Source: a virus (Duplodnaviria; Heunggongvirae; Uroviricota; Caudoviricetes). From it: a stretch of DNA of 34,077 bases. Below are positions 15,176 to 34,077 of the stretch, in pieces. A model generated the notes under the pieces. It searched no databases. It was not told where the DNA came from and saw only the letters and a list, made by a program, of their open reading frames with translations. Both the position numbers and the translations under genes were made by a program. Location: the IMG/VR virus record IMGVR_UViG_2547132421_000005, one strand, 5' to 3'. Numbering within the stretch: the stretch's first letter is position 1; each line of letters opens with the position of its first letter.

Positions 15176-15537
15176 GTGAATACCTACAGCATCACATTAC
15201 CCTGGCCTCCGAGCAATAATCGCTATTACCGCCATAATCGCGGGCGCACGCACGTCAGCGCAGAGGGGCAGGCATACCGCGATAACGTCGCCCGAATCAT
15301 TAAAAACGCAATGCTGGATATCGGCCTGGCTATGCCTGTGAAAATCCGCATTGAGTGCCACATGCCGGATCGCCGTCGCCGTGACCTGGATAATCTGCAA
15401 AAAGCCGCTTTTGACGCACTCACTAAAGCAGGTTTCTAGCTGGATGATGCTCAGGTCGTTGATTACCGCGTTGTGAAGATGCCTGTTACCAAAGGTGGGA
15501 GGCTGGAACTGACCATCACCGAAATGGGGAATGAATG
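15176..15537 (+). pseudogene. rusA: RusA Holliday-junction resolvase interrupted by an in-frame amber codon (TAG at 15437-15439, codon 88)
   Basis: Track ORF 15176..15439 stops after ...DALTKAGF; the same frame continues [32 protein letters not shown] to a TGA at 15535-15537, which I recognise as the RusA C-terminus. Confidence 0.75.
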
Positions 15538-15675
15538 ATGTTTGAGTTTAATATGGCAGAACTTCTTCGCCACCGCTGGGGGCGTCTGCGCTTATATCGT
15601 TTCCCCGGTTCTGTTTTGACCGATTACCGAATACTGAAGAATTACGCCAAAACACTGACAGGAGCAGGAGTATGA
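15538..15675 (+). CDS. ylcG: YlcG-like small protein, 45 aa (not in track)
   Basis: My own translation: MFEFNMAELLRHRWGRLRLYRFPGSVLTDYRILKNYAKTLTGAGV; ATG overlaps the rusA stop. Hand-read. Confidence 0.55.
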   Translation: MFEFNMAELLRHRWGRLRLYRFPGSVLTDYRILKNYAKTLTGAGV

Positions 15676-15760
15676 AGTCAGAGATAACAATCAACTAATA
15701 CTGTTTTGTTGATTTTTGCTTGTAATTGGCGTTCTGGTCTGAGTTTTGTGGAGTAAGTTG

Positions 15761-16138
15761 ATGCGTGATATTCAGATGGTTCTTGAGCGTTGGGGAGCGT
15801 GGGCGGCTAATAATCATGAAGATGTGACCTGGTCGTCCATTGCCGCCGGTTTTAAGGGATTAATTCCTTCAAAAGTAAAATCTCGCCCACAATGTTGTGA
15901 CGATGACGCGATGATCATTTGCGGGTGCATGGCCCGTCTGAAAAAGAACAACAGCGATTTGCATGATTTATTGGTGGACTATTATGTCGGCGGCATGACT
16001 TTTATGGCGCTTGCACGTAAGCATGGGCGATCTGATTGTTGGGTTGGCAGGATGCTTCAGAAAGCTGAGGGCGTAGTGGAGGGTATGCTGATGGTGTTGG
16101 ATCTCCGATTGGAGATGGATGCTGATTGTTCGAAATAA
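15761..16138 (+). CDS. Late-gene antiterminator Q (phage 82 / DLP12 QuuD type), 125 aa
   Basis: Internal ATG of track ORF 15746..16138: [60 protein letters not shown]; Cys cluster typical of Q82-type proteins. Confidence 0.85.
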
Positions 16139-16150
16139 TTAAAGGAAAAG

Positions 16151-16180
16151 TTGCTGTCTGATTGTCATTAGTCTAACATT
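16151..16180 (+). promoter_or_regulatory. Candidate late promoter pR' / qut region (TTGCTG, 17 bp, TAACAT)
   Basis: Position immediately downstream of Q and about 60 nt upstream of the tR'-like terminator; hexamers read by eye, weak match. Confidence 0.25.
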
Positions 16181-16237
16181 TTAAATGTTGGAATCGCAAC
16201 GTAGTTATTATCATATAACAGCTTGTTTCCTGATTTA

Positions 16238-16266
16238 GCCAGCCTCCCCAAAGGCTGGTCTTTTTC
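16238..16266 (+). terminator. tR'-like intrinsic terminator downstream of Q
   Basis: gccagcc-tccccaaa-ggctggt hairpin followed by ctttttct. Confidence 0.55.
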
Positions 16267-16293
16267 TAATAAGTATTATTTCGGGTAGGGATT

Positions 16294-16818
16294 TTATTGT
16301 TTAACCCATAATAATTCATTGACATTGAATCCCAACTTTTGAGCGGTTCGCACATAGTCTGCTTTTACTTTATCTGGAATAGTTGGGGTCCTTGCCAGAA
16401 TCCATAGGTATTCTCTGTTCGGACCACTGACAAGAGCATACTTATACTCATCATCCAGTTTGATTACATTATAGCCACCATAGAAGGGGCCAAAAAACGA
16501 AACCTTCAATGCTGCAGTTTTAGTATCTCCAGTAAAGTATGCTTTACCTTCGCTCTCGCTCCATTTATTTTTCGTTGGATCGTATCCACGGTTAAGTACA
16601 CGAATCCCTCCGTCGTTCCGTTTTCCATAAGTAGCGCTGACCTGTTCCAGACCACGTTCGAACCGGTTCTCGAGGCGAGCTATTTCATACCATTTTCCGA
16701 GGTAGCGGTTGGCGTCAAAATTTGTAATCGGCTGCACACCTTTAGGTGGTGTCGGGGCCTTACATGCTATAAGAGTGAAAGAGAGTGCAATGCCAGTCAA
16801 CACAGGCCATAACTTCAT
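16294..16818 (-). CDS. blc: Blc-like outer-membrane lipocalin lipoprotein, 174 aa
   Basis: Track ORF; signal peptide plus lipobox LIAC; YLGKWYEIARLENRFERGLEQVSATY is the lipocalin signature of Blc. Confidence 0.85.
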   Translation of the reverse strand: MKLWPVLTGIALSFTLIACKAPTPPKGVQPITNFDANRYLGKWYEIARLENRFERGLEQVSATYGKRNDGGIRVLNRGYDPTKNKWSESEGKAYFTGDTKTAALKVSFFGPFYGGYNVIKLDDEYKYALVSGPNREYLWILARTPTIPDKVKADYVRTAQKLGFNVNELLWVKQ

Positions 16819-17010
16819 AATAAATCCTGTACTTTTGATAGTTGAGAGTAAGTATGAAAGATAGATGATTACGACCGATCACTTAAAGAACTTTCATACT
16901 ATATTAGGAATAGTCCATAACAGAAAAATTGTCAGTGATGACGCCAGAAAGGCAATTTATTCCGTGCACTACACAGTTTATGTGTTAATGAATTAGTCAA
17001 GGGGGAGAAT

Positions 17011-17970
17011 ATGATAAAAAAACCTGTGATTGGAATCAGCGGTTGTTTGGCCGGTTCTGCTGTTCGTTTTGATGGTGGTCACAAAAGAGCTGACTTTTTA
17101 ATGGACAAATTAGTGGAATGGGTAACATTCAGACCAGTATGTCCGGAAATGGCTATAGGGCTGCCAGTTCCGCGTCCTGCTCTACGTCTTGTGCGCTCGA
17201 TGCAAGGAAATATACGGATGTGTTTCAGCCACGACCAGAATGAGGATGTGACAGAGAGAATGACAGAGTTTAGTCGTTCTTATATGGACAAATTAAAGGA
17301 TGTATCGGGGTTTGTGGTTTGTGCTAAATCTCCCAGCTGTGGCATGGAGCGCGTGCGTGTCTATGATGAAAATGGTAATCGAGGTCGTAAAGATGGAGTG
17401 GGACTATTTACGAGCACTTTGATGGAAAAGTTTTCCTGGCTACCGGTTGAAGAGGATGGGCGATTACATGATCCAGTGCTTCGTGAGAATTTTGTTGAAA
17501 GAGTTTTTGCTTTGCATGAGCTCAATCACCTTTACAAGGAGAAATTATCAAGAAGAGAGTTATTAGCTTTTCATAGTCGTTATAAGCTTCAGTTGTTGGC
17601 GCATAGTCAGGCAGGCTATAAAGATATGGGACCATTTGTGGCTGCAATACACGAGTGGGCGGACCTTGAATCATACTTTGAGGTGTATCGTGATAAGCTG
17701 ATGGCGATTCTCAGAAAACCTGCATCACGTAAAAATCACACGAATGTGCTGATGCATATACAGGGGTATTTTAGTAACTACTTAAGTACACGCCAGCGTA
17801 AAGAGTTGAGCGAGGTTATACTTAACTATCGTTCTGGCACATTACCTCTTCTTGCGCCGTTGACTCTGCTGAAGCATTATCTGGGTGAGTATCCTAATGA
17901 TTACTTGCTTACACAGAATTACTTCGATCCCTATCCGGACGAACTGGCTCTAAGACTGATGGTAAATTAA
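17011..17970 (+). CDS. DUF523-DUF1722 fusion protein (TudS/RudS-like thiouracil/4-thiouridine desulfidase family), 319 aa
   Basis: Track ORF; N-terminal Cys-rich DUF523-like region (GISGCLAG...CPE...SPSCG) and YbgA-like C-terminal half; family assignment from memory. Confidence 0.7.
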   Translation: MIKKPVIGISGCLAGSAVRFDGGHKRADFLMDKLVEWVTFRPVCPEMAIGLPVPRPALRLVRSMQGNIRMCFSHDQNEDVTERMTEFSRSYMDKLKDVSGFVVCAKSPSCGMERVRVYDENGNRGRKDGVGLFTSTLMEKFSWLPVEEDGRLHDPVLRENFVERVFALHELNHLYKEKLSRRELLAFHSRYKLQLLAHSQAGYKDMGPFVAAIHEWADLESYFEVYRDKLMAILRKPASRKNHTNVLMHIQGYFSNYLSTRQRKELSEVILNYRSGTLPLLAPLTLLKHYLGEYPNDYLLTQNYFDPYPDELALRLMVN

Positions 17971-18312
17971 TTGTATGCGATATCATCCAAAAGGATGAGT
18001 TCCTGCATGCAGGATATTTACAATCGTAAAAACTACACTATGATACCCAGAGTGTCAGTTTGTATAAAAACTCTGTTTACGCTGAAGAAACAATTGAGAT
18101 GCAACTTAAAGTTGGTAAACATGCCAGTCAAAATATATAATATTATGATTCCACGCAGCTATATATAATATAACAGATTGGTTTAATAATTTGTCTTTGT
18201 GAGTTAAATACATAATTTTATACTTGTGATGCAATGAAATTTTCCTTATTGTTGAACTGGCGAATATTGATTTTCCACCTATACTTACCTGGTGTAACCC
18301 CAATGATATCAG

Positions 18313-19053
18313 GTGGATAATATGCCATACATATGTTCTATCATTTTGGTGTTGAACTCGTTTGATGTCCGAATCGGTAAAGAAGATATTTTGTTTAAAA
18401 AAGGAAGTGCTGTTCTCATTGATTACAATTTAAAAGATTTTTTTTCATCAAATATAGATCATGTAATGATCGTAGATGTTGAAGAGAAAACAGTTAATGA
18501 TTTCTTTAAAAGCAACACACTCTCACCTTTTTCTGTAAGAAGGTTTTATCCGGCATACTTGATGGTGGAATGTGAAGATTTTTCATTGTTAAAGAACTTG
18601 ATTGCATGCTTGAATTGTGATGGCAGAACTGTGGATTTTGTTAGAAATCAAATATCACTTGCATGTCTTGCTATCTTATCTTCAGAGAAAATAGTGCAAA
18701 GTTTTTTATTTGGATGTCTTAATAGTTTAGGAAGTAAAGTTAAGGCTATTATTCACACGGATATATCTGCAGCATGGAGACTTTGTGATATATCTTCAAG
18801 ACTGTATCTGAGTGAAAGTCTGTTAAAAAGAAAATTAAAGCACGAAGGCTTATCATTTAGTAAGTTAATTCTTGAAGAGCGAATGGTGATGGCGGAAAGG
18901 TTATTAAGCTACAATTTATATTCTGTTGGAAAAGTTGCTGAGATATGCGGTTATGAAAACACGTCATATTTTGTAAGTGTTTTCAGAAGGTATTTTGGTG
19001 TTCCTCCCCATCAATATTCATCAAGATTTTTTTTAGAAAAAGACATGATGTAA
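18313..19053 (+). CDS. AraC-family transcriptional regulator (AppY/EnvY-like), 246 aa
   Basis: Track ORF; C-terminal AraC HTH (LSESLLKRKLKHEGLSFSKLILEERMVMAERLL...VGKVAEICGYENTSYFVSVFRRYFGVPPHQY); strongly AT-rich. Confidence 0.8.
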   Translation: MDNMPYICSIILVLNSFDVRIGKEDILFKKGSAVLIDYNLKDFFSSNIDHVMIVDVEEKTVNDFFKSNTLSPFSVRRFYPAYLMVECEDFSLLKNLIACLNCDGRTVDFVRNQISLACLAILSSEKIVQSFLFGCLNSLGSKVKAIIHTDISAAWRLCDISSRLYLSESLLKRKLKHEGLSFSKLILEERMVMAERLLSYNLYSVGKVAEICGYENTSYFVSVFRRYFGVPPHQYSSRFFLEKDMM

Positions 19054-19114
19054 CGTGATGCGTTTTAATGATTTTGTAATTTTCGTATTTGATAATTGTA
19101 TGATGCTTTCAGCT

Positions 19115-19146
19115 ACGCCAGAATAATCGCGGCGTTTTTCTTTTTG
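19115..19146 (+). terminator. Candidate terminator after the AraC-family gene
   Basis: acgcc-agaataatcgc-ggcgt hairpin (5-bp stem) followed by ttttctttttg; weak stem. Confidence 0.3.
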
Positions 19147-19240
19147 AATAGATGTTCAAGCCTTACGCTAATGTAACTTCTATACCTTTCCTCTTCGTTC
19201 CGAACCGTGTACACCATCCGTTATTTGCGGAGGTGAGGCT

Positions 19241-19296
19241 ATGAAATCCATGGATAAGTTAACAACGGGTGTCGCCTATGGCACCTCAGCAGGTAG
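19241..19296 (+). pseudogene. 5' fragment (18 codons) of a class II holin S (S21/EssD-like), truncated by IS3
   Basis: GGAGGTGAGG RBS, then MKSMDKLTTGVAYGTSAG with the dual-start MKSM motif, directly followed by the IS3 left inverted repeat at 19297. Hand-read. Confidence 0.6.
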
Positions 19297-19361
19297 TGAT
19301 CTTACCCAGCAATAGTGGACACGCGGCTAAGTGAGTAAACTCTCAGTCAGAGGTGACTCAC

Positions 19362-19661
19362 ATGACAAAAACAGTATCAACCAGTAAAAAACCCCGTAAA
19401 CAGCATTCGCCTGAATTTCGCAGTGAAGCCCTGAAGCTTGCTGAACGCATCGGTGTTACTGCCGCAGCCCGTGAACTCAGCCTGTATGAATCACAGCTCT
19501 ACAACTGGCGCAGTAAACAGCAAAATCAGCAGACGTCTTCTGAACGTGAACTGGAGATGTCTACCGAGATTGCACGTCTCAAACGCCAGCTGGCAGAACG
19601 GGATGAAGAGCTGGCTATCCTCCAAAAGGCCGCGACATACTTCGCGAAGCGCCTGAAATGA
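19362..19661 (+). CDS. insE: IS3 transposase OrfA (InsE), 99 aa
   Basis: Track ORF 19353..19661; [54 protein letters not shown]. Confidence 0.9.
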
Positions 19662-20524
19662 AGTATGTCTTTATTGAAAAACATCAGGCTGAGTTCAGCA
19701 TCAAAGCAATGTGCCGCGTGCTCCGGGTGGCCCGCAGCGGCTGGTATACGTGGTGTCAGCGGCGGACAAGGATAAGCACGCGTCAGCAGTTCCGCCAACA
19801 CTGCGACAGCGTTGTCCTCGCGGCTTTTACCCGGTCAAAACAGCGTTACGGTGCCCCACGCCTGACGGATGAACTGCGTGCTCAGGGTTACCCCTTTAAC
19901 GTAAAAACCGTGGCGGCAAGCCTGCGCCGTCAGGGACTGAGGGCAAAGGCCTCCCGGAAGTTCAGCCCGGTCAGCTACCGCGCACACGGCCTGCCTGTGT
20001 CAGAAAATCTGTTGGAGCAGGATTTTTACGCCAGTGGCCCGAACCAGAAGTGGGCAGGAGACATCACGTACTTACGTACAGATGAAGGCTGGCTGTATCT
20101 GGCAGTGGTCATTGACCTGTGGTCACGTGCCGTTATTGGCTGGTCAATGTCGCCACGCATGACGGCGCAACTGGCCTGCGATGCCCTGCAGATGGCGCTG
20201 TGGCGGCGTAAGAGGCCCCGGAACGTTATCGTTCACACGGACCGTGGAGGCCAGTACTGTTCAGCAGATTATCAGGCGCAACTGAAGCGGCATAATCTGC
20301 GTGGAAGTATGAGCGCAAAAGGTTGCTGCTACGATAATGCCTGCGTGGAAAGCTTCTTTCATTCGCTGAAAGTGGAATGTATCCATGGAGAACACTTTAT
20401 CAGCCGGGAAATAATGCGGGCAACGGTATTTAATTATATCGAATGTGATTACAATCGGTGGCGGCGGCACAGTTGGTGTGGCGGCCTCAGTCCGGAACAA
20501 TTTGAAAACCAGAACCTCGCTTAG
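19658..20524 (+). CDS. insF: IS3 transposase OrfB (InsF; normally made as an OrfAB frameshift fusion), 288 aa
   Basis: Track ORF; DDE integrase-core region ([31 protein letters not shown]...HTDRGGQY...). Confidence 0.9.
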
Positions 20525-20554
20525 GCCTGTGTCCATATTACGTGGGTAGGATCA

Positions 20555-20683
20555 AATGCAGCCTCCCCCCGACTGGCAGACACCGCTGAACGGGATTATT
20601 TCACCCTCCGGGAACGACTGGTAATGATGCAGGCCCAACTTGAAGGTGCTCAGCAATACATAACCGAGCAGTGTTTAAAGTAA
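20555..20683 (+). pseudogene. 3' remnant of the spanin genes Rz/Rz1 (5' part, endolysin and most of holin absent)
   Basis: Immediately after IS3: one frame gives MQPPPDWQTPLNGIISPSGNDW-stop (Rz1-like C-terminus), another gives ...RERLVMMQAQLEGAQQYITEQCLK-stop (Rz-like C-terminus). Hand-read. Confidence 0.6.
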
Positions 20684-20820
20684 AATCTTAACTACAATAT
20701 GATTCATTTTGATGATTGTTTCATAAGGAACAGTGAAGTAAGATCTAAGAGGAGTTAAATTTTATACAGTATAATCATAATATTGCAGCAAGGTGGTTAT
20801 AATTGAAAGAATATTTAGAT

Positions 20821-22278
20821 ATGAATACATCTCATGTAAGAGTTGTTACTCATATGTGTGGGTTCCTGGTTTGGCTCTATAGTCTTTCAATGTTGCCACC
20901 AATGGTTGTAGCATTGTTTTATAAAGAAAAAAGCCTGTTCGTTTTCTTTATAACTTTCGTTATATTTTTTTGCATTGGTGGCGGAGCGTGGTATACAACT
21001 AAGAAATCTGGCATTCAATTACGTACCCGTGATGGGTTTATTATAATTGTAATGTTTTGGATTTTGTTTTCTGTTATTAGTGCATTCCCTTTATGGATTG
21101 ACTCAGAACTTAATTTAACGTTCATTGATGCTCTGTTTGAAGGGGTTTCTGGAATAACAACAACAGGAGCAACTGTAATTGATGATGTTAGTTCATTACC
21201 TCGGGCATATTTGTACTATCGGTCACAGTTAAATTTTATAGGTGGTTTAGGAGTTATTGTTCTGGCGGTTGCTGTATTGCCATTATTGGGTATTGGTGGT
21301 ACAAAGCTTTATCAGTCAGAAATGCCGGGGCCATTTAAGGATGACAAACTCACTCCCCGCCTGGCCGATACGTCACGGACACTGTGGATAACTTATTCTT
21401 TATTAGGTATTGCTTGTATTGTCTGTTATAGACTTGCAGGAATGCCTTTGTTTGATGCTATTTGTCACGGGATTTCCACAGTTTCGCTTGGTGGTTTCTC
21501 AACTCATAGCGAGAGTATCGGATATTTTAATAACTATTTGGTTGAGCTGGTGGCTGGTTCTTTTTCCCTGCTATCGGCTTTCAACTTCACTCTTTGGTAT
21601 ATTGTTATTAGCAGGAAAACGATAAAACCTTTAATCAGAGATATTGAACTTCGTTTCTTTCTGTTAATAGCCTTAGGGGTGATCATTGTTACCTCTTTCC
21701 AGGTCTGGCATATAGGTATGTATGACTTGCATGGAAGTTTTATTCATTCGTTTTTTCTTGCCAGCTCCATGCTCACTGATAATGGTTTAGCTACGCAGGA
21801 TTATGCAAACTGGCCCACGCACACGATAGTGTTTTTGCTGTCGTCAAGTTTCTTTGGGGGATGTATAGGTTCAACTTGTGGTGGAATTAAGTCACTTCGA
21901 TTTCTTATACTTTTCAAACAAAGCAAACACGAGATAAATCAGCTTTCTCATCCCAGAGCGTTGTTGAGTGTAAATGTAGGAGGGAAGATAGTTACAGATC
22001 GTGTAATGAGGTCTGTATGGAGTTTCTTTTTTCTTTATACTCTCTTCACGGTGTTTTTTATACTGGTGTTAAATGGTATGGGATATGATTTTCTTACATC
22101 ATTTGCAACAGTGGCTGCATGTATTAATAATATGGGATTAGGTTTTGGGGCTACTGCATCGTCATTCGGAGTGCTTAATGACATTGCAAAATATTTAATG
22201 TGCATAGCTATGATTCTTGGTCGCCTTGAAATTTATCCTGTTATTATATTGTTTTCAGGTTTTTTTTGGCGCTCCTAA
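20821..22278 (+). CDS. trkG: TrkG/TrkH-family K+ uptake membrane protein, 485 aa
   Basis: Internal ATG of track ORF 20803..22278 (MNTSHVRVVTHMCGFLVWLYSLSMLPPMVVALFYK...), recognised as the Rac-prophage trkG type; polytopic membrane protein; AT-rich. Confidence 0.9.
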   Translation: MNTSHVRVVTHMCGFLVWLYSLSMLPPMVVALFYKEKSLFVFFITFVIFFCIGGGAWYTTKKSGIQLRTRDGFIIIVMFWILFSVISAFPLWIDSELNLTFIDALFEGVSGITTTGATVIDDVSSLPRAYLYYRSQLNFIGGLGVIVLAVAVLPLLGIGGTKLYQSEMPGPFKDDKLTPRLADTSRTLWITYSLLGIACIVCYRLAGMPLFDAICHGISTVSLGGFSTHSESIGYFNNYLVELVAGSFSLLSAFNFTLWYIVISRKTIKPLIRDIELRFFLLIALGVIIVTSFQVWHIGMYDLHGSFIHSFFLASSMLTDNGLATQDYANWPTHTIVFLLSSSFFGGCIGSTCGGIKSLRFLILFKQSKHEINQLSHPRALLSVNVGGKIVTDRVMRSVWSFFFLYTLFTVFFILVLNGMGYDFLTSFATVAACINNMGLGFGATASSFGVLNDIAKYLMCIAMILGRLEIYPVIILFSGFFWRS

Positions 22279-32659: not shown

Positions 32660-32714
32660 GGTGATGCTGCCAACTTACTGATTTAGTGTATGATGGTGTT
32701 TTTGAGGTGCTCCA

Positions 32715-32990
32715 GTGGCTTCTGTTTCTATCAGCTGTCCCTCCTGTTCAGCTACTGACGGGGTGGTGCGTAACGGCAAAAGCACCGCCGGACATCAGCG
32801 CTATCTCTGCTCTCACTGCCGTAAAACATGGCAACTGCAGTTCACTTACACCGCTTCTCAACCCGGTACGCACCAGAAAATCATTGATATGGCCATGAAT
32901 GGCGTTGGATGCCGGGCAACAGCCCGCATTATGGGCGTTGGCCTCAACACGATTTTACGTCACTTAAAAAACTCAGGCCGCAGTCGGTAA
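32715..32990 (+). CDS. insA: IS1 InsA, 91 aa
   Basis: Track ORF; [43 protein letters not shown]. Confidence 0.9.
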
Positions 32991-33412
32991 CCTCGCGCAT
33001 ACAGCCGGGCAGTGACGTCATCGTCTGCGCGGAAATGGACGAACAGTGGGGCTATGTCGGGGCTAAATCGCGCCAGCGCTGGCTGTTTTACGCGTATGAC
33101 AGGCTCCGGAAGACGGTTGTTGCGCACGTATTCGGTGAACGCACTATGGCGACGCTGGGGCGTCTTCTGAGCCTGCTGTCGGCCTTTGACGTGGTGATAT
33201 GGATGACGGATGGCTGGCCGCTGTATGAATCCCGCCTGAAGGGAAAGCTGCACGTAATCAGCAAGCGATATACGCAGCGAATTGAGCGGCATAACCTGAA
33301 TCTGAGGCAGCACCTGGCACGGCTGGGACGGAAGTCGCTGTCGTTCTCAAAATCGGTGGAGCTGCATGACAAAGTCATCGGGCATTATCTGAACATAAAA
33401 CACTATCAATAA
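32909..33412 (+). CDS. insB: IS1 InsB reading frame (normally expressed as an InsAB' frameshift fusion)
   Basis: Track ORF; overlaps the 3' end of insA in the -1 frame, as in IS1. Confidence 0.85.
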
Positions 33413-33427
33413 GTTGGAGTCATTACC

Positions 33428-34077
33428 CCCGCGTTATACCACGTCCCATTAATGCAATACTGAATTGGCCTTGCCTGAGTTGTATCAATTAATTCATCAC
33501 GGTTTCCGTTAACTGAACCCGTAACGACATAACCTGACCTGTCAGACCAGCCGGGGCCTTTCCATGTCTGAACAGATGACAGACCGCCAAGGCGAATACC
33601 TGTAATAAACCTTGAGTTACATTCTGCCTGCGTATATGCACCAACATCCCCCGCAGAGGGTTTGCGTGTTGTGGTGTAAAACTCTGACCAGTTAGCTTCA
33701 AAGCCATAACCATCACGCGCTGAACGATAAAAAATACCGCCGTTCCTGTAATTCACGCGGAACTGTACAGCAGGGCAACTCCCCGCATTCATATTGAAGT
33801 GGAGGATTAATGTCGATGCACCACTGATATCTGCATCATAAACACCGCTATTCCAGTTCCAGCCAACAGCTTTATCATTTGCGACCCTGCGTCCTGTTTG
33901 CCCTAAAGCAAATGCAGGCTGCTGGTTTTTCGTGTTGTAGTCTCGTCGCCAGCCAGGAGCGTAAGCATCACCATGATTAATATAAGTGAATTGAGCGTTA
34001 GTAATTCCGCCACCGCTGGACGTGCTCGGCGTAGTAACGCGTATGGTCATTGCGCCGCGAGTGCCAATAACTTCCAC
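33428..34077 (-). pseudogene. Tail-fibre-like gene fragment on the minus strand, 3' end truncated by IS1; 5' end beyond the window
   Basis: Track ORF 33406..34077 (no real start, runs to the window edge); Gly/Ser/Thr/Asn-rich beta-type sequence typical of tail-fibre distal domains; last 6 codons and stop come from the IS1 end. Confidence 0.45.

Follow-up and report, generated by a model that had tools for sequence, protein, structure and literature searches.

The window, that is, the whole stretch of 34,077 nucleotides analysed here, holds a defective lambdoid prophage of E. coli that lies between ybhC and bio (the attB-lambda region) and carries trkG as cargo. The features relevant to its lysis region and to its general state are the following:

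15761..16138, + strand: intact gene of the antiterminator Q (annotation of colinear genomes, intact translation)
19226..19240, + strand: ribosome-binding region of the holin gene, GCGGAGGTGAGGCT before the ATG, read directly
19241..19296, + strand: 5' remnant of essD, a class II (phage 21 S-type) holin gene; nt 1-56, i.e. 18 codons and 2 nt
19297-20554, + strand: complete IS3 of 1258 bp, with the left inverted repeat starting at 19297 and the right one ending at 20554
19362-19661, + strand: orfA of IS3 (HTH_Tnp_1, PF01527)
19658-20524, + strand: orfB of IS3 with the DDE/rve core (PF00665, PF13333, PF13276)
20555..20683, + strand: 3' remnant of the i-spanin gene Rz, codons 113-154 of 154 (20555-20680, stop at 20681-20683)
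20556..20624, + strand: 3' remnant of the embedded o-spanin gene Rz1 in the +1 frame (20556-20621 plus stop)
20803..22278, + strand: cargo gene trkG, encoding a TrkH-family K+ transporter (PF02386, E=9e-144)
32660..33427, strand not given: IS1 copy, a second and independent lesion

The Q gene marks the start of the late operon that housed the lysis cassette, and the AT-rich trkG (GC 0.37) follows directly downstream of the cassette and is kept in every variant examined (loci L001-L017). A consensus promoter scan of positions 15700-20900 returned no signal that could be interpreted (17 sites, compared with 11.5 expected). Irrespective of the lysis genes, the prophage is defective anyway: colinearity with the complete relative ends at the IS1 copy, the tail genes are absent through an IS1-associated loss, and rusA carries a nonsense codon.

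At the left end of the former cassette, the Shine-Dalgarno sequence GGAGGTGAGG precedes the ATG at 19241, and the entire region 19226..19240 is identical to that upstream of the intact essD in 81EVA and BKQWHE. The remnant has kept the M1-K-S-M4 dual-start motif, and its residues MKSMDKLTTGVAYGTSAG(S) are identical to EssD residues 1-19 at 19 of 19 positions (tblastn), which bears out the preliminary description, where an S21-type holin start with ribosome-binding site and MKSM motif had been recognized that runs for 18 codons and is then abutted by the left repeat of IS3. The break falls after nt 56; codon 19 takes its last base from IS3, whose first letter is a T, and the frame continues as DLTQQ-stop. 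Class II holins (PF04971) comprise about 68-71 aa with two transmembrane domains and a dual start, and the intact EssD of the relative matches this family with E=2e-35; in the window, both transmembrane segments are gone, and the remaining piece of the gene does not encode a protein of this family.

At the right end, the Rz remnant starts at Rz nt 337 (codon 113) and comprises 42 codons that are 100% identical to the intact Rz (tblastn), without the N-terminal membrane anchor. Of Rz1, the last 22 of 61 codons (40-61) are left, which encode MQPPPDWQTPLNGIISPSGNDW, just as at the C-terminal end of the intact protein; the signal peptide and the lipobox are missing, as the …VVGC… falls in the deleted part. 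The earlier statement that the right repeat is directly followed by the 3' ends of Rz and Rz1 thus holds, while the accompanying figure of roughly 45 Rz codons has to be lowered to 42. Whereas the intact Rz and the intact 61-aa Rz1 match PF03245 (E=4e-53) and PF06085 (E=2e-19), respectively, neither component of a two-component spanin is present here at full length. On either side of IS3 there hence lie remnants of holin and spanin genes, as had been assumed: the start of a holin gene of the phage-21 S type on the left, and the ends of Rz and Rz1 on the right.

Of rrrD, the SAR-type lysozyme gene that lies between essD and Rz in the intact cassette, nothing is left, and no lysozyme ORF (PF00959) adjoins the holin gene. 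Within the window, no tblastn match to a lysozyme (RrrD, GH24; PF00959 type) was better than E=1.9, tblastn searches with EssD and a lambda-type holin revealed no second holin, and neither the PHROG scan of the unnamed ORFs nor the RefSeq annotation of the colinear genomes EC529 and PSJ-14 contains an endolysin or a second holin. The claim that no endolysin gene exists in the window is in line with these searches, which likewise returned no intact holin-endolysin pair elsewhere in it. Judging from this gene content, a prophage without holin transmembrane domains, endolysin and functional spanins would be incapable of lysing its host by genes of its own, as had been concluded before.

The element that occupies the place of the lost genes is an intact IS3. 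Its termini read TGATC...GATCA, the terminal inverted repeats are complementary at 28 of 40 positions, and it has the orientation of phage late transcription. The two reading frames overlap in the -1 direction at ATGA and are predicted to be joined by a programmed -1 frameshift; the identical copy in EC529 and PSJ-14 is labelled 'IS3-like element IS3 family transposase, programmed frameshift' in RefSeq. With one of the IS3 copies of K-12 MG1655 it shares the length of 1258 bp, the orfA/orfB overlap, the HTH and DDE (rve) domains, the imperfect TG...CA repeats and 1255 of 1258 positions (99.8%, 3 differences). What sets it apart is the lack of the flanking 3-bp (occasionally 4-bp) duplication typical of a simple insertion: the K-12 copy has an ATC target duplication, whereas the triplets next to the window copy, TAG (left) and AAT (right), do not match, as noted already in the preliminary description. 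This has no bearing on its identity as IS3, but the copy is not in the state of a simple insertion. The missing duplication is meaningful, since the six simple IS3 insertions found in related loci all carry duplications of 3-4 bp (GTC, ACT, GCC, GGT, GTTC and CTGG).

The extent of the loss can be read from the prophage of 81EVA, which is 99.9% identical, occupies the same ybhC-bio site, carries the same trkG allele and has an intact essD-rrrD-Rz/Rz1 cassette. Viable lambdoid phages, among them ev207, 2G7b and mEp332, have cassettes with 96-97% identity to the intact one. The alignment to an intact cassette, suggested earlier as a means to define the deletion endpoints, places the left flank of the window at essD nt 56 of 81EVA and the right one at Rz nt 337, in the same orientation and with exactly 989 bp between them that are missing here. 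An intact insertion sequence, junctions at its exact termini, no duplication and flanks that are colinear but non-adjacent in the relative are what is found in an IS-associated deletion. Because both junctions coincide exactly with the IS3 termini, the underlying process was specific for IS ends. Nor are the junctions an assembly artefact, since PSJ-14, from a human in Ecuador, and EC529, from chicken meat in Viet Nam, are independent complete genomes in which both recur identically. It had been proposed that the arrangement reflects an adjacent deletion or recombination between two IS3 copies rather than simple insertion, and the absent duplication and the exact termini fit this proposal, which we would refine in that the loss was probably stepwise.

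Evidence for such steps comes from related genomes. HeN100 carries a simple IS3 insertion after rrrD nt 111, flanked by a GTC duplication, and B27 combines the left junction of HeN100 with the right junction of the window, so that only the right-hand 719 bp are gone; a comparison of the flanks of B27 and the window gave no more than 1 mismatch over 3.2 kb to the left of the element and 0 over 1.7 kb to its right. Since both a simple insertion and a half-deleted state exist, the loss was probably not a single event. In our survey of junctions in 5426 complete genomes, the right junction IS3|Rz337 occurs in about 9-11 genomes with at least 5 different left junctions (the left partners being rrrD, essD, two positions in recE and a position next to ral), and the contiguous left junction of the window was found only in PSJ-14 and EC529. 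A pattern in which one end is fixed and the other varies is typical of IS-adjacent deletion or of recombination between IS3 copies.

From our point of view, it is very probable that the original cassette of essD (pinholin type), rrrD (SAR lysozyme type) and Rz/Rz1 was gutted by rearrangements nucleated by one IS3 copy. IS3 would first have transposed into the cassette, giving a state like that of HeN100; the DNA to its right would then have been lost up to Rz nt 336 and, subsequently, the DNA to its left back to essD nt 57. The end product would be a complete IS3 whose ends touch sequences once 989 bp apart, without a matching duplication. Each loss could have been brought about by the IS3 transposase within the molecule (adjacent deletion) or by a second IS3 nearby and homologous recombination, both of which would yield the same product.

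One could also imagine that the deletion came first, by illegitimate recombination between essD and Rz, and that IS3 inserted later at the scar. IS-free deletions in this cassette do occur, as FG92-1 of the same prophage lineage carries an IS-free in-frame essD::Rz fusion with 599 bp lost. However, a later simple insertion would leave a duplication of 3-4 bp where TAG and AAT are found instead, the IS3-free essD56|Rz337 junction that marks the 989-bp deletion is present in none of the 5426 genomes, and the right junction also has other left partners, including rrrD nt 111. We consider this order of events extremely improbable and reject it on account of the missing duplication and the missing IS3-free junction.

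B27 itself cannot be taken for the literal ancestor of the window. A junction with ISKpn26 just behind trkG is common to HeN100 and B27 but absent from the window, and the window IS3 differs from their copy at positions 200 and 1132; we therefore keep B27 solely as evidence that the half-deleted configuration exists. It follows from the shared ISKpn26 junction that the Rz337 junction arose more than once, or that ISKpn26 inserted twice, or that segments recombined. The IS3 copies at this junction show three right-end haplotypes at positions 1132/1214, namely (A,C), (G,C) and (G,A), and carry either G or A at position 200. The three right-end haplotypes need gene conversion, recombination between IS3 copies or a recurrent origin.

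As to the enzymology, it is quite possible, if somewhat below an even chance, that the losses were caused directly by the IS3 transposase through intramolecular transposition from the resident copy, with no second IS3 involved. The window contains a single IS3 copy and no second or partial one, both junctions are exact IS3 ends, and two direct IS3 copies bracketing essD56-rrrD111 were found in none of the 5426 complete genomes. According to PMC8860574, which cites Sekine et al. 1994, IS3 makes adjacent deletions of various lengths, also on plasmids, with endpoint homology of at most 6 bp, and deletions by the IS3-family element IS150 extend stepwise in the long-term evolution experiment (PMC11708052). 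However, a copy that had simply stayed in place while DNA beside it was lost would not be expected to differ from its putative parent in HeN100/B27, as the window IS3 does at positions 200 and 1132. Furthermore, copy-out-paste-in, the pathway standard for the IS3 family, does not on its own remove the DNA flanking the donor (Chandler et al. 2015, as cited in PMC11708052).

Coming close to an even chance is the possibility that a second IS3 in direct orientation was present at essD codon 19 and/or Rz nt 337, and that RecA-dependent recombination removed the interval; such a copy could also have arrived on DNA from another strain or prophage. The mosaic of IS3 alleles at Rz337 speaks for exchange between copies, as does the occurrence of the same right junction in prophages at ttcA and at ybhC-bio with different trkG alleles, a distribution that recombination through homologous IS3 and trkG sequences would readily account for. 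L73 even carries IS3 and a partial IS3 in tandem within Rz. In addition, IS3 has demonstrably inserted at holin codons 19-22 and at Rz nt 337-345: independent simple insertions lie 6-9 bp from each window junction, which makes both sites genuine IS3 targets, and the one nearest to the Rz junction, in A23 and USMARC-51688, sits 6 bp further into Rz with the target-site duplication GCC. On the other hand, the precursor junctions predicted for simple insertions at the very sites would read GGCGTGGATAAT|TGATCTTACC and GGTAGGATCA|TAGTGCCGG, and neither direct-orientation insertion, at essD codon 19 (expected duplication TAG) or at Rz nt 337 (expected duplication AAT), was found in the 5426 complete genomes or in metagenome contigs. 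An exchange of position 1214 would moreover require that the crossover fell in the terminal 44 bp of the element. By eye, the Rz target resembles the right end of IS3 (GGAT), a likeness too weak to claim.

A further question is why IS3 was kept. It might drive trkG from an outward promoter at its right end, in which case its retention would reflect adaptive promoter capture and not neutral decay. IS3 has been reported to contain a strong promoter, P3R, that faces outward and is codirectional with the transposase gene (PMC8860574). In the window, trkG starts 248 bp downstream of the right end of the element, and IS3|Rz337-trkG persists in the above 9-11 or so genomes while the left side varies. 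But IS3 shows no orientation bias in cassettes of this type (direct in 24 genomes at ~10 positions, inverted in 15 genomes at ~8 positions), and trkG is equally kept in relatives with an intact cassette and without IS3. Selection for an IS3 promoter that drives trkG is hence unsupported, and we regard it as highly unlikely.

Taken by itself, a cassette gutted around one IS3 copy is an instance of ordinary and well-understood IS-driven prophage decay. It explains the missing endolysin of this prophage and flags an unannotated 56-nt holin remnant, but carries little weight beyond annotation. It also offers a tidy natural example of stepwise prophage erosion by an IS3-family element, with intact, simple-insertion, half-deleted and fully deleted states all represented among sequenced isolates. 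The apparent clustering of independent IS3 junctions, only a few bases apart in the holin gene as well as in Rz, could be of interest for work on IS3 target choice and prophage domestication. One could speculate further that holin codons 19-22 and Rz nt 337-345 are sequence-preferred IS3 spots and that IS3 is a recurrent, possibly selected, disarming agent of trkG-carrying lambdoid prophages, in which a copy anchored beside trkG progressively erases genes for lysis, replication and immunity but spares the cargo. The junction would pass by recombination between prophages that occupy different attachment sites. We consider this extension rather unlikely.

Among known systems, phage 21 (S21-R21-Rz/Rz1) and DLP12 (essD-rrrD-rzpD/rzoD) have the same gene order as the intact relative, which also shows the phage-21-like traits PF04971, PF00959, PF03245 and PF06085, an MKSM dual start and an N-terminal hydrophobic lysozyme segment. 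Of such a cassette, the window has kept no lysozyme gene at all; what it does retain amounts to 56 nt for the holin, 129 nt for Rz and 69 nt for Rz1.

The Rac prophage of E. coli K-12 (ydaW'-rzpR'-rzoR-trkG) is likewise a defective lambdoid prophage in which trkG directly follows a decayed Rz/Rz1 region, and Rac-site variants of other strains have an IS3|Rz337 junction identical to that of the window. The K-12 Rac remnant differs in that it is not known to have an IS3 at the corresponding position, has kept the full rzoR and lies at ttcA as opposed to ybhC-bio.

The closest parallel for the process is provided by IS150, for which 14 of 14 deletion events in the Lenski experiment lacked a target-site duplication, each having come after an earlier insertion and often being enlarged stepwise (PMC11708052). 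The IS150 deletions and the plasmid deletions by IS3 resemble the window in the intact element, the missing duplication, the one fixed end and the varying other endpoint, and the sequence of insertion, deletion and enlargement seen with IS150 in real time is paralleled by the natural series described here. The window differs from both cases in that its pattern is deduced from natural isolates instead of a time series, in that deletions lie on both sides of the element, and in that exchange between prophages may have contributed in its lineage.

The lysis cassette of the prophage is broken by a complete IS3 element at holin codon 19, as the preliminary description had stated, and the interrupted region is made up of the following features:

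19241 onward, 56 nt: holin (essD) 5' remnant
19297-20554: complete IS3, 1258 bp, ends TGATC...GATCA, 28 of 40 terminal positions complementary
19362-19661: IS3 orfA, HTH_Tnp_1 domain
19658-20524: IS3 orfB, domains rve, rve_2 and HTH_21, overlapping orfA in the -1 frame
20555-20683: Rz 3' remnant, codons 113-154 plus stop
20556-20624: Rz1 3' remnant, last 22 codons, +1 frame
20803-22278: trkG, AT-rich cargo to the right of the lysis position (GC 0.37)

To the left of IS3, a ribosome-binding sequence (GGAGGTGAGG) precedes the ATG at 19241, and the 56 nt that start there encode MKSMDKLTTGVAYGTSAG and end with the first two bases of codon 19. Since the serine codon is completed by the first T of IS3, this remnant matches the class II holin EssD at 19 of 19 residues (tblastn), after which the frame reads DLTQQ-stop within the element. 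On the right, both spanin remnants are 100% identical to intact Rz and Rz1, so that the assignment of the flanks to holin and Rz/Rz1 holds, with 42 Rz codons left instead of the roughly 45 given previously. The intact EssD of a relative matches PF04971 (bacteriophage P21 holin S, E=2e-35), and intact Rz and Rz1 match PF03245 and PF06085, respectively.

The same prophage, at 99.9% identity and with the same trkG allele, is present in 81EVA as well as in MB30, GSH8M-2 and WP8-S18-CRE-02, where essD-rrrD-rzpD is intact. Aligned to this cassette, which is 96-97% identical to those of viable lambdoid phages, ev207, 2G7b, PhiR11_1 and mEp332 among them, the left flank of the window stops at essD nt 56 and the right flank begins at Rz nt 337; therefore, 989 bp are missing, namely the entire lysozyme gene rrrD (498 nt), 160 nt from essD and 336 nt from Rz together with the 5' portion of Rz1. 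When EssD, RrrD, a GH24 lysozyme and a lambda-type holin were used as tblastn queries, no other holin or endolysin was detected in the window; the same result came from scanning the unnamed ORFs against PHROGs and from the RefSeq annotations, in line with the earlier claim that an endolysin gene is missing. In FG92-1, which has the prophage lineage and trkG allele of the window, an IS-free, in-frame essD::Rz fusion (locus L017, 2525-3097) lacks 599 bp, with rrrD removed completely, and represents an independent route to endolysin loss.

The three base pairs outside IS3 differ (TAG on the left, AAT on the right), and the absence of a target duplication, already noted before, is informative because six simple IS3 insertions in related loci have one of 3-4 bp (GTC, ACT, GCC, GGT, GTTC, CTGG). 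The K-12 MG1655 copy used for comparison, which differs from the window IS3 at 3 of 1258 positions, is flanked by ATC duplications. A deletion that came first and received IS3 later is contradicted by the missing duplication, and a direct junction of essD nt 56 to Rz nt 337 without IS3 is absent from all 5426 complete E. coli genomes searched. Three states of the cassette could be compared:

HeN100: IS3 left junction after rrrD nt 111, right junction from rrrD nt 109 (GTC repeated); simple insertion with GTC duplication
B27: left after rrrD nt 111, right at Rz nt 337; 719 bp gone on the right
Window, PSJ-14 and EC529: left after essD nt 56, right at Rz nt 337; another 270 bp gone on the left

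HeN100, B27 and the window have a trkG allele in common, and over 3.2 kb of left flank they differ at no more than one position, over 1.7 kb of right flank at none. The junction of IS3 to Rz nt 337, followed by trkG, also occurs in Rac prophages at ttcA (2018-05-2CC and MB50), with left ends at two positions in recE, and in a lambda-like prophage of the pig ETEC strains ETEC1720 and ETEC1739 and of PM4, with the left end beside ral; these Rac and lambda-like prophages retain trkG but have lost >10 kb of genes for replication, immunity and late control. Overall, this right junction is found in about 9-11 of the 5426 genomes with at least five different left junctions, the left junction of the window in only two; the right junction is the more widespread and probably the older one. 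One right junction with varied left junctions, a pattern of one fixed and one variable end, is characteristic of IS-associated deletion, which supports the former proposal of an adjacent deletion by IS3 or recombination between IS3 copies and refines it to a loss that was probably stepwise. A passage in PMC8860574, citing Sekine et al. (1994), states that IS3 makes adjacent deletions of varied lengths, and for IS150, of the same family, insertion, adjacent deletion and enlargement of the deletion have been described, never with a duplication (PMC11708052).

The observed product can be reached by two routes, namely that (i) the transposase acts within the molecule on the resident IS3 copy; or (ii) a second IS3 copy arrives and homologous recombination follows. 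Recombination or conversion is favored by the haplotypes, as the window IS3 is G200/A1132 versus A200/G1132 in HeN100 and B27, and copies with the Rz nt 337 junction show three haplotypes at positions 1132/1214. However, the two-copy or simple-insertion precursors predicted by recombination were found neither in complete genomes nor in metagenome contigs. A search of the window gave no IS3 sequence beyond 19297-20554.

An ISKpn26 element (IS5 family) lies directly downstream of trkG in several genomes, including B27 (L002, 6449 onward), HeN100 (L003, 7172 onward) and MB50 (L007, 9116-10096); between HeN100 and B27 its trkG-side junction is the same and the far-side DNA different, which is another fixed-end, variable-end pattern. 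Because B27 and HeN100 share this junction and the window lacks it, B27 is ruled out as the literal ancestor of the window state. This leaves a repeated origin of the Rz nt 337 junction, two separate ISKpn26 insertions, or an exchange of segments via IS3 and trkG homology.

Both window junctions lie exactly at the IS3 termini, and independent simple insertions are located 6-9 bp from each site, which argues that the sites were picked by IS3 transposition chemistry and not by random breakage. In A23, whose prophage has a lambda-type holin and a GH24 lysozyme, IS3 sits in Rz (L011, 4084-4086, duplication GCC) 6 bp further in, so that Rz nt 337-345 holds two independent junctions within 6 bp (window 20555 and A23). 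Inverted simple insertions at holin codons 20-22 are found in STEC383 (L018, 2583-2586, CTGG) and STK78-E (L019, 2573-2575, GGT); together with the window (19294-19297), three independent junctions from three different prophages fall into a stretch of 9 bp at class II holin codons 19-22, a candidate local hot spot for IS3 targeting.

Additional IS3 insertions within Rz occur in L73, MB22 and 23CRST025. In L73 a complete IS3 is directly followed by a 331-bp 3' IS3 fragment (L005, 3811-5399), and more than one copy can therefore land in the cassette. The recurrence of IS3 in essD-rrrD-Rz cassettes is striking as raw counts over the 5426 genomes: at distances of up to about 600 bp from the holin start, IS3 is direct in 24 genomes (about 10 positions) and inverted in 15 (about 8 positions). 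Adaptive capture of an outward IS3 promoter by trkG is not supported, given that both orientations occur in this cassette type and that trkG is kept equally without IS3.

The window is colinear with a lambdoid prophage sited between ybhC and ybhB-bioA, in the order int, xis, exo-bet-gam-kil-cIII, sieB, N, cI-like repressor, cro, cII, O, P, ren, nin region and Q, followed by an AT-rich cargo block, the lysis position, trkG, a ParB/Srx gene, terminase, portal and a P22-type capsid gene. AT-rich cargo flanks the lysis position on both sides (whole-window GC 0.47). Further features are:

15176-15538: rusA, in which a stop takes the place of the Trp88 codon of 81EVA (nonsense codon at about 15437-15439)
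16160-19240: AT-rich cargo (GC 0.38) with a lipocalin gene (minus strand), a YbgA-like gene (2-thiouracil desulfurase and DUF1722 domains) and an AraC-type regulator gene
32660-33427: IS1, where colinearity with the complete relative 81EVA stops
33428-34077: tail-fibre gene fragment, minus strand

The IS1 region is a second IS-linked deletion, and the prophage lacks tail genes including those for the tail terminator, tube and tape measure, so that, with the rusA lesion, it is defective in several ways beyond its lysis cassette. PSJ-14 and EC529 share the rusA lesion and, at 100% identity, both IS3 junctions; they carry additional IS1 and ISEc22 insertions not present in the window, which therefore stems from a third, related strain.

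Overall, both the phenomenon and its components are well known, and identical sequences are already annotated in RefSeq except for the 56-nt holin remnant. What remains of note is that the states of decay form a natural series and that independent IS3 junctions cluster tightly in the 5' end of the holin gene and in Rz.
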